NCBI RefSeq assembly: GCF_003334785.1
Contig: NZ_QOWV01000019.1
DNA length: 64,000 bases
Reading direction: 5' to 3' (one strand)
From: Escherichia coli
GTDB lineage: Bacteria > Pseudomonadota > Gammaproteobacteria > Enterobacterales > Enterobacteriaceae
Shown: positions 1 through 3,000 of the stretch, piece by piece
Numbering within the stretch: position 1 is the stretch's first letter
Layout of the letters: every line of letters begins with the position of its first letter
Program-made: the position numbers

Positions 1-3000
1 GACTTACGCGTGCGCAGGCCGACGCACAGGAGCTGAAAAATGCCAGAGACTCCGCTGAAGTGGTGGAAACCGCATTCTGTACTTTCGTGCTGTCGCGGAT
101 CGCAGGTGAAATTGCCAGTATTCTCGACGGGATCCCCCTGTCGGTGCAGCGGCGTTTTCCGGAACTGGAAAACCGACATGTTGATTTCCTGAAACGGGAT
201 ATCATCAAAGCCATGAACAAAGCAGCCGCGCTGGATGAACTGATAACGGGGCGCACTTTGACGGTGACCAGAGCGGCACGGTGAATGGTGTCACGCCGCC
301 AGCAGTTCAGCACCTGACCGCAGAAGTCACCGCAGACAGCGGGGAATACCAGGTGCTGGCGCGCTGGGACACGCCGAAGGTGGTGAAGGGGGTGAGCTTT
401 ATGCTTCGCCTGACCGTGGCAGCGGACGACGGCAGTGAGCGGTTGGTCAGCACGGCCCGGACGACGGAAACCACATATCGCTTCACGCAGCTGGCGCTGG
501 GAAATTACAGGCTGACAGTCCGGGCGGTAAATGCATGGGGACAGCCGGTGCACATACCCATTCGATGACATTTGTTTCAGGTGGTTCCAGTGGTGCTCCG
601 GGAAGTGGATCACCTGATTATTCTAAATACAGTGTTAACACTTCTTCTGCAGGCGCTCATACGCACTCTGTATCGGGTACTGCTGCAAGCGCAGGTGCAC
701 ACGCACATACTGTCGGTATTGGTGCTCATACGCACTCCGTTGCGATTGGTTCACATGGACATACCATCACCGTTAACGCTGCTGGTAACGCGGAAAACAC
801 CGTCAAAAACATCGCATTTAACTATATTGTGAGGCTTGCGTAATGGCATTCAGAATGAGTGAACAACCACGGACCATAAAAATTTATAATCTGCTGGCCG
901 GAACTAATGAATTTATTGGTGAAGGTGACGCATATATTCCGCCTCATACAGGTCTGCCAGCAAACAGTACCGATATTGCACCGCCAGATATTCCGGCAGG
1001 CTTCGTGGCTGTTTTCAACAGTGATGAGGCATCGTGGCATCTCGTTGAAGATCATCGGGGTAAAACGGTTTATGACGTGGCATCAGGGGACGCGTTATTT
1101 ATTTCTGAACTCGGTCCGTTACCGGAAAATGTTACCTGGTTATCGCCGGGAGGGGAATATCAGAAGTGGAACGGCACAGCCTGGGTGAAGGATACGGAAG
1201 CAGAAAAACTGTTCCGGATCCGGGAGGCGGAAGAAACAAAAAACAGCCTGATGCAGATAGCCAGTGAGCATATAGCGCCGCTTCAGGATGCTGTGGATCT
1301 GGAGATCGCAACGGAGGAAGAAACCTTGTTGCTGGAAGCCTGGAAAAAGTATCGGGTGTTGCTGAACCGTGTTGATACATCAACTGCACCGGATATTGAA
1401 TGGCCAGCACTGCCGTAGGGTAAAACATATAAATTCTATAATTAGATGTATCTCTCCATTTACGGCAAGGAAGGGGGCTTGGAAGACGTAAAGCATCTCA
1501 CACCGAGATTATTTTTTATATGTCAGGTGTCTGAAGTTTTGCTTTGGCTCTTAAAATGGTTTGCCGCGAGGTTTTGAATTCCCGGGCAATGGCACTTATA
1601 CTTACACCTGACTTAATTCGTTCGAATACCACCTGTTTCTGTTCTTCATTTAACACAGGTGGTCGACCAAAACGTTTCCCTGCGCCGCGGGCTCTTACTA
1701 TCCCGGAATGAGTGCGTTCAAGTAAAAGGTCTCGTTCAAATTCAGCGACTGCTGAAATTACGTGCATCATCATTTTTCCTGTTGGACTGGTCAGGTCAAT
1801 GCCCCCCAATGCTAAGCAATGCACTCTGATACCTGTTTCGGTCAGTTGTTCCACTGTTTTCCTGATATCCATTGCATTACAACCAAGGCGATCCAGTTTT
1901 GTCACAATCAATTGATCACCACATTTCAGGCGAGCAAGCAACCGGTTAAAACCAGGACGCTCACTGGTTGCTGCTGAGCCGCTAATGTGTTCTTCGATTA
2001 TTTGCTGAGGTTTGATTTTAAAACCTGCACTTTCGATTTCCCGGCGTTGATTTTCGGTGGTCTGATCCAGCGTTGATATCCGACAGTAAGCAAAAATTCG
2101 AGACATAGTGAGACTCTATACGAAATTGGTGTTCATATCATAATGCATCTCAGAAAATAATTTTGATTATTTTTGTGCATATTTGTATGTACACGTTCGA
2201 AAATAAACGAATGCGTATGCAACCCCGTAACTTTGGTGAGACCCAAAATCGATTTTGTGAAAAATGGCTTTAACTCGGTTTGTTTTTCGAGTTCCGGGCG
2301 GACTCAAGGAAGAAGAATAGTGTTGCGTGTTATTTTAACCAGATTTCAAGTTGTTTGGTCGTGGAAAAGTGGAGCAAAATGTTGTTAAAGTGGAAAAATG
2401 ATAAAAAAGTAAGTTTATTATATTACATTTTACCATTTAAATTTTGGTTGTCTTTAAGAACTGATATCGCTGTTTGTAATAATTCTTTGTTATCCAGCCA
2501 TGATTTTTTCTTTATGTTTCCTTCAATGTAATCAAGCAATGTTCTGGTATTGATAGGTCTTCCCTGTTTTGCTACTTCCACTACAGCATCCCCTAGGATA
2601 ATTCTGACTTCAGGAAGCTGCGCAGGGAACCACTTTAGGGTGTCTTTTGATTTCATGAATATATTCCTTAAAATATTATTGATTTTCATTGCGATATTGT
2701 ATGTCTGATTCAGGATATGTTGACTTATACATCGGTTTTGTCTGGGTTATTGGATATGCCAATCCCTAATTTTATTAGAGCATGACTAAAAATGCTGAAT
2801 ATGATAAGGAGCGAAGTGATTATCAGTATGCTGTTCATATAGCCTCGAATTAGTAATGTGTTATATATGATATAGTTGACAATTTTTATCCTGGGTGTTC
2901 TTAAAGTTCGTAGATAAACATTGTCGTTTCAGGTATACAGGAATGCTAACAGATGGCGGCAAAAATCAGGCGGTTTATGGCGCAAGCTGAAGTGGCAACT

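Follow-up and report, generated by a model that had tools for sequence, protein, structure and literature searches.

Why should a complete small serine recombinase gene stand beside a phage tail-fibre gene when no DNA segment that it might invert can be found there? The question is raised by pinQ, which occupies positions 1516-2106 (minus strand) of a 64,000-nucleotide stretch of Escherichia coli DNA (assembly GCF_003334785.1, contig NZ_QOWV01000019.1; the whole stretch is referred to below as the window). A preliminary description of this DNA presented the gene as an intact Pin invertase, orphaned by prophage decay and perhaps still able to act in trans. Its basic observations were correct. 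The open reading frame (ORF) is full length and codes for a 196-aa protein with Pfam Resolvase (residues 4-144, E 6.7e-36) and HTH_7 (residues 147-190, E 8.6e-11) domains, the nucleophile Ser11 is retained (YCRISTLDQ), and a single tfa gene, tfaQ (843-1418, plus strand), adjoins pinQ. The analysis described below leads to a different view of what the gene is. We conclude that pinQ is probably the tnpR gene of a Tn3-family transposon relic, and that its product is a stranded and probably crippled resolvase rather than a Pin invertase.

The relationships of the protein were considered first with respect to known invertases. PinQ and PinE of e14 share 36.7% of their residues, and identity with Gin-type phage invertases ranges from 36 to 39%; at the DNA level, no homology between pinQ and invertase genes was detected. 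When scored against the Gin structure, PinQ obtained 109 bits and PinE 312 bits; PinQ is thereby about as distant from Gin as PinE is from gamma-delta resolvase (112 bits). A search of NCBIfam with PinQ returned only sub-threshold matches, to other serine recombinase families. Much closer relatives, with 76-84% identity in pairwise counts made during this analysis, number in the thousands in the protein database, and occur, both plasmid-borne and chromosomal, in E. coli, Salmonella, Providencia, Morganella, Klebsiella, Hafnia, Yersinia, and Shewanella. Relatives of this class from E. coli plasmids, Hafnia, Shewanella, Klebsiella, and Providencia were all tnpR genes, and the assignment of pinQ to the Pin invertases is therefore not upheld. 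At most sampled loci, tnpR is divergent from, and separated by 160 bp from, the gene of a 994-aa protein (DUF4158, DDE_Tnp_Tn3), for which the NCBIfam model of Tn3-family transposases gives 1197.8 bits (cut-off 500). The copy on E. coli plasmids measures 3815 bp and is bounded by perfect terminal repeats of 38 bp, GGGGTCCGCTTGGAAAACGGAAAATATCCCACGCTAAG; in one plasmid (L016) it is surrounded by a 5-bp duplication, TAATA. Two copies are present in one genome of Shewanella baltica, and 57 E. coli genomes carry the transposon in full. Organized as tnpA-res-tnpR, where res is the recombination site, the plasmid relative is an unremarkable small transposon of the Tn3 family. Relatives closer to pinQ and accompanied by a transposase were also sought; the copies at 86-93% identity all turned out to be in phage context, and to be mosaics with plasmid tnpR. 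Beside the transposon on an E. coli plasmid, inverted Tn3-family-like terminal repeats beginning with GGGGTCAGTTTGGATA surround about 258 bp (L012 2244-2501), a unit that looks like a miniature Tn3-derived element.

The homology with the transposon is not limited to the gene. pinQ sits in an 834-bp unit (1473-2306) which, read along the plus strand, consists of a first terminal inverted repeat (IR1), pinQ in minus orientation, a decayed res, and a second repeat (IR2). IR1 (GGGGGCTTGGAAGACGTAAAGCATCTCACACCGAG, 1473-1507, plus strand, outer end at 1473) is the tnpR-proximal repeat; aligned with the transposon repeat it matches at 27 of 35 bases after a 3-bp gap, and it lies 8 bp past the pinQ stop codon, the same distance as in the transposon. 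From IR1, homology runs through the gene to 96 bp upstream of its ATG, and ends at about the centre of res site I. IR2 (TGAGTCCGCCCGGAACTCGAAAAACAAACCGAGTTAAA, 2269-2306, minus strand, outer end at 2306), the degenerate tnpA-proximal repeat, is inverted relative to IR1 and matches the transposon repeat at 24 of 38 bases, with TGAG in place of the typical starting GGGG. When the sequence of 2107-3500 was shuffled, one shuffle in 300 reached 24 matches (binomial P 7e-7 per site). Directly outside the terminal repeats, two identical copies of the 5-bp direct repeat AGGAA are found, at 1468-1472 and 2307-2311 (both plus strand). Two inverted terminal repeats with a 5-bp direct repeat at their tips are, to judge from their sequence, the footprint of a Tn3-family insertion. 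No transposase gene is present between the res remnant and IR2, where there are only 66 bp. The same repeats and the same AGGAA are present in K-12 Qin, in K-12 Rac, and in a diverged lineage (L030); the insertion would therefore be older than their split. In the latter lineage (L030 2598-3188, strain MSHS 133), the pin coding sequence is about 10% diverged from that of the window and the flanking res remnant and IR2 are nearly identical by eye, which suggests that the gene body was swapped by recombination with a third allele.

The state of res was established by alignment with five active transposon copies. The half-site TG[TA][CA][CG]GAA[AT] is common to these copies, in which sites I and II are also spaced alike. 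An active res is composed of subsite I (TGACCGAAA-N8-TTTCGKACA) beside tnpA, subsite II (N14), and a third site beside tnpR, with TATAAT between II and III. Half-sites of the TGTCCGAAA type resemble the gamma-delta half-site, CGTCCGAAA. In the window, counterparts of subsite III (TGAACACCAATTTCGTATA, 2117-2135, minus strand) and subsite II (2148-2179, minus strand, half-sites TGCACAAAA and TTTCTGAGA) could be located, and the -10 box has the sequence TATGAT. Compared with the family consensus (TGTCCGAAA and TTTCGKAYA), each half of subsite II is mutated at positions where the five active copies vary little or not at all. The right half of subsite I (TTTCGAACG, 2194-2202, minus strand) is the exact point where the local alignment starts; the left half is absent from the window, and tnpA is absent too. 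That homology ends at about the centre of subsite I would be consistent with recombination at the crossover point having removed the tnpA half, with the exact junction base blurred by divergence. With subsite I reduced to its right half and subsite II altered in both half-sites, the res of pinQ would no longer be usable by its own product. A scan for paired half-sites with up to three mismatches, which recovered the sites of the two scanned transposon copies at 0-1 mismatch, yielded 19 matches in the 64-kb window versus 20.3 expected; all had three mismatches and the subsite II of the window failed to score, so that no other good site would be at hand in the window either. An inverted sequence similar to the left half of res site I is located at 2237-2257 (plus strand), 35 bp from the surviving right half of subsite I: TGAGACCCAAAATCG has a 15/18-base local match to transposon site I and a 12/15 match to TGTGACCGAAAATGA. 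It overlaps a perfect 14-bp palindrome, CAAAATCGATTTTG (2244-2257), one arm of which shows this similarity.

The pair of crossover sites that would be expected of an inversion switch was not found near pinQ, in agreement with the preliminary description. A scan with AAACCNNGGTTT at up to two mismatches gave 38 matches in the window versus 33.5 expected, and none in positions 1-2700; the e14 crossover core CCTTCTCCCAAACCAA had no match near pinQ at up to three mismatches. In e14 itself, the crossover sites (L003 3791 and 5604) bracket stfP-tfaP / tfaE-stfE, and pinE begins about 57 bp from the nearest of them. pinQ instead converges on tfaQ, their stop codons being 97 bp apart. This arrangement is not a product of decay, as had been proposed. 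The same ydfJ site in the O26:H11 strain 11368 is occupied by an intact lambdoid prophage with J, lom, a 986-aa stf, and tfaQ, followed on the opposite strand by pinQ, ydfK, and ynfT, and by the attachment site. The layout stf-tfa-> <-pin <-ydfK <-ynfT is also seen in Turner, a viable free-living phage, and both flanks of the pin unit are held by 10 further phage records (11 sequenced phages with Turner). A single tfa beside pin is therefore the native state of the module.

It could be argued that the switch is intact and was missed because its crossover sites are unlike those of the gix, hix, and pix type; serine recombinase sites are short and degenerate, and can escape consensus searches. 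We consider this extremely improbable. An inverted-repeat search of window positions 1-3500 and of the intact O26 counterpart produced only short pairs with 70-80% complementarity, none of them convincing, and revealed no inverted crossover sites flanking tfaQ or stf. Paired half-sites of the family type did not exceed chance across the window. The pin region was found in 2876 of 5426 complete E. coli genomes, and in 0 of roughly 90 rows sampled, non-exhaustively, from these genomes was it split into pieces on opposite strands. Finally, Kirigo et al. (2025; PMC12529663) reported that the segment beside pinQ is not inverted, and their BLAST comparison of Qin and Rac with E. coli genomes revealed inversions only in e14. 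If pinQ is a transposon relic it would never have had a tail-fibre inversion switch, and would for this reason be accompanied by one tfa and by no crossover sites.

We next consider whether PinQ can be expected to be active. Of the Tn3 resolvase active-site set (Y6, R8, S10, D36, R68, and R71), the counterparts Y7, R9, S11, and R73 are kept in PinQ, and Glu39 is found at the D36 position, as in the transposon copies. At the position of Arg71 of Tn3/gamma-delta resolvase, which aligns with the matching arginine of Gin and PinE, PinQ has Cys76 (codon TGT, 1879-1881, minus strand), so that LDRLGR has become LDRLGC. The cysteine is present in PinQ of the window, in K-12 PinQ and PinR, in the O26 prophage, and in phage Turner. 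Among the 120 nearest cluster representatives, 114 have arginine at this position; cysteine occurs in five, all of phage type, which stand for 3953 member sequences. In Tn3 resolvase, the R71A and R71K substitutions abolish recombination and make strand cleavage about 1000-fold slower, while binding and synapsis of site I persist (PMC2794168). Thus, although the frame is open and full length, with a catalytic arginine replaced by cysteine it is doubtful that the recombinase is "intact". On the basis of the alignment PinQ is most likely a poor catalyst or no catalyst at all, which may still bind DNA, and we infer that recombinase activity was lost. PinQ of the window further differs at codon 115 (1762-1764), which specifies histidine, and glutamine in K-12 PinQ, PinR, and transposon TnpR. 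The residue aligns with His106 of Gin, a position at which Fis-independent invertase mutants arise.

An effect of PinQ in trans has been published. K-12 cells overproducing PinQ survived T2 and carried an inverted 1797-bp P segment of e14; by quantitative PCR (qPCR), 88% of the segment was inverted with pCA24N-pinQ and 49% with overproduced PinE, and the effect of PinQ was lost upon deletion of stfP, stfE, or e14 (PMC12529663). Together with the open reading frame and the presence of Ser11 and most other catalytic residues, these results are what one would expect if PinQ were an active invertase that lacks a target in cis and acts in trans on Pin-family crossover sites elsewhere, for example those of the e14 P segment. 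Kirigo et al. (2025) interpret the protein in this way, and the preliminary description took a similar view. We nevertheless consider such an activity unlikely, for several reasons. According to Table S4 of the same work, the inverted P segment accounts for 30% in the wild type, 22% in a pinQ deletion, and just 1.5% in a pinE deletion, despite the presence of pinQ and pinR in the latter; PinE is therefore the native catalyst. The main text reports no test of PinQ in a pinE-null strain (PMC12529663). An equilibrium at 88% is atypical of a plain invertase, and overproduction of PinE itself yields 49%. PinQ has cysteine at the R71 position and is only about 37% identical to PinE, while its relatives recognise half-sites of the TGTCCGAAA type, of which the scan described above revealed no pair in the e14 region. 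Moreover, a K-12-type P segment with pinE was present, at a query coverage of at least 80%, in 170 of 5426 genomes (an undercount, inverted-orientation copies aligning in broken pieces) versus 2876 genomes with pinQ, and the e14 P segment is an unlikely explanation for the wide distribution of the gene. Because of Cys76 and the descent of the gene, we infer that the part of PinQ in the e14 reaction is at most to assist or bias it, mainly through PinE. The proposal of action in trans is thus borne out insofar as overproduced PinQ was reported to increase e14 inversion, and is weakened by the near disappearance of inversion when pinE is deleted.

Ratios of nonsynonymous to synonymous substitution rates (dN/dS) bear on the selection that acts on pinQ. 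Two transposon copies compared with each other gave 0.08, Qin compared with the E. coli transposon gave 0.16, and a pair of phage-borne lineages, both of which have Cys76 and the same target duplication, gave 0.37. Constraint on phage-borne pinQ is, therefore, relaxed several-fold, yet is not neutral. Some prophage pin genes are mosaic: their flanks and 3' ends are of Qin type, the res-proximal and central coding parts are identical to plasmid tnpR (L021 5610-6640; P0003, P0005-P0008), and Arg76 is regained. Such mosaics indicate ongoing gene conversion between plasmid and prophage copies. In strain Z1323CEC0007 (L001 7516-9207) an IS481-family element interrupts pinQ, as IS1 does in strain B379 (H31); the gene is therefore dispensable in at least some strains.

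The remaining constraint could reflect a function other than recombination. PinQ might be a domesticated DNA-binding protein retained by the phage, a catalytically weak resolvase with affinity for res-like or pix-like sites that represses or interferes with related Tn3-family plasmid transposons, or that modulates PinE-type invertases, for instance by biasing the orientation of the P segment. The recognition-helix region is kept relative to transposon TnpR (TSRQTILRA versus TTRQTILRV), and the ORF with Cys76 has persisted through about 10% nucleotide divergence at the dN/dS of 0.37. The persistence of site I binding and synapsis in Tn3 resolvase R71 mutants (PMC2794168), the occurrence of the full transposon in the 57 E. 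coli genomes, and the combination of PinE dependence with a skewed, 88% orientation would also suit a binding protein or modulator. We regard this explanation as quite unlikely, however. The half-sites in the res of pinQ itself have decayed, which argues against selection for self-regulation, and a dN/dS of 0.37 could equally result from slow decay combined with hitch-hiking on a successful phage module.

Comparison with well-characterized systems helps to place the pinQ unit. In transposons of the Tn3 and gamma-delta/Tn1000 type, tnpA and tnpR are divergent with res between them, and it is to tnpR in that exact arrangement that PinQ is 76-84% identical. With these systems it shares the Resolvase and HTH_7 domains, a target duplication of 5 bp, a homologous 38-bp terminal repeat that follows shortly after the stop codon, and a homologous upstream region with res-like subsites and half-sites of the TGTCCGAAA type. 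It differs from them in the absence of the transposase and of the left half of site I, in the mutated site II, in the cysteine at the Arg71 equivalent, and in being phage-borne, and its catalytic domain scores somewhat nearer to Gin. Like Gin, Hin, Cin, and PinE, PinQ is a small serine recombinase, and it resembles them in length and in the order of its domains. Its gene adjoins phage stf/tfa genes, and its overproduction reportedly raises e14 P-segment inversion. Unlike these invertases, to which it is only about 37% identical, it has neither an invertible segment nor crossover sites of 26 bp; its gene is directed towards tfa, not away from a crossover site, and the sequence upstream is res-like. 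Short units that lack a transposase and have Tn3-family terminal repeats with a 5-bp duplication offer a third comparison. The pinQ unit displays all three traits, but it keeps a complete tnpR ORF and part of res, its terminal repeats are degenerate, and no second copy or recent mobility was seen.

The following scenario would account for these features. A Tn3-family transposon would have inserted just downstream of tfa in the ancestor of the tail-fibre module of Rac/Qin-type lambdoid phages. The transposase would later have been lost, leaving the 834-bp unit flanked by the AGGAA target duplication. Several observations weigh against this scenario or against the loss of activity. PinQ scores higher with Gin (109 bits) than with gamma-delta resolvase (82 bits). 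IR2 is weak, at 63% identity. The scenario does not account for the 66 bp that separate IR2 from the res remnant; the sole match of this stretch to the transposon is the inverted left half of site I. An empty site, in which the tfa and ydfK flanks would be joined through a single AGGAA, was present in none of the 2802 E. coli genomes that hold the flanks and in none of the 11 phage records, and exact matches to it were absent from IMG/VR and GTDB representative genomes. The pinQ ORF is open in thousands of genomes with a dN/dS below 1, so that selection for some function is probable. Tn3 resolvase mutated at R71 is described as "not inert" (PMC2794168), and the Cys76 enzyme could therefore still work slowly when strongly overproduced and under selection by phage. 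Lastly, the increase of e14 P inversion from about 30% to 88% with overproduced PinQ fits an active recombinase (PMC12529663). With these points taken into account, we still favour the descent of pinQ from a transposon tnpR.

The surroundings of the unit are those of a degraded prophage. A cryptic prophage of Qin type is inserted in ydfJ; its right end makes up the first 8 kb of the window, after which come ydfI, ydfZ, rspR (ydfH), and ydfG. The truncated ydfJ is located at 3442-4725. tfaQ lies outside the 834-bp unit, and beyond pinQ come ydfK and ynfT, both on the minus strand. Upstream of tfaQ, three gene fragments are joined head to tail: a 3' piece of nohA (1-284), a fragment of the tail-tip protein J gene (242-548), and the C-terminal end of the side tail fibre gene (about 535-843). 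The Qin prophage with this triple fusion (1-843) has lost all that lay between the terminase gene and the fibre tip. K-12 matches the window at 98% identity, and the strain of the window is not K-12. The best match was strain Z1323CEC0007, which is identical except for the interruption of its pin gene. Rfam matches were obtained for IS009 at 1186-1384 (221 bits), within the 3' half of tfaQ, and for the Hfq-binding small RNA STnc560 at 12779-12992 (281 bits). Among prophages, homology stops at the tfa stop codon, and the slot past it holds differing cargo. In one locus (L019 5956-9812) this cargo consists of a GIY-YIG protein, a cytosine methyltransferase, and a type II restriction enzyme; in another (L020 5822-7578), an RnlA/RnlB toxin-antitoxin pair stands beside a recombinase pseudogene. 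In a third (L018 3884-5606), tfa is followed by about 1.7 kb with repeated tfa 3' fragments.

The annotation of E. coli K-12 lists pinQ and pinR as DNA invertases, and the descent proposed here would re-label both; a link of either gene to Tn3 or tnpR, as an account of its origin, is not described in the searchable literature. If the two genes are transposon relics, the absence of an invertible segment is explained, and a recombinase gene beside tail-fibre genes should not be taken for a host-range switch until its descent has been checked. pinQ would then clearly exemplify a transposon fragment that became fixed in the cargo slot after tfa in lambdoid phages and that still exchanges sequence with plasmid copies by gene conversion. 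The arginine-to-cysteine change and the published PinE dependence also call into question the mechanism put forward in 2025 for PinQ-mediated defence against T2. As a speculative extension, which we consider doubtful, PinQ and PinR may be domesticated, catalytically disabled resolvases kept by lambdoid phages as DNA-binding modulators that, without cutting DNA, push PinE-type tail-fibre switches to one orientation or repress related Tn3-family transposons. If that were the case, the "recombinase-activated" anti-T2 defence would be a PinE-dependent process steered by a dead resolvase.

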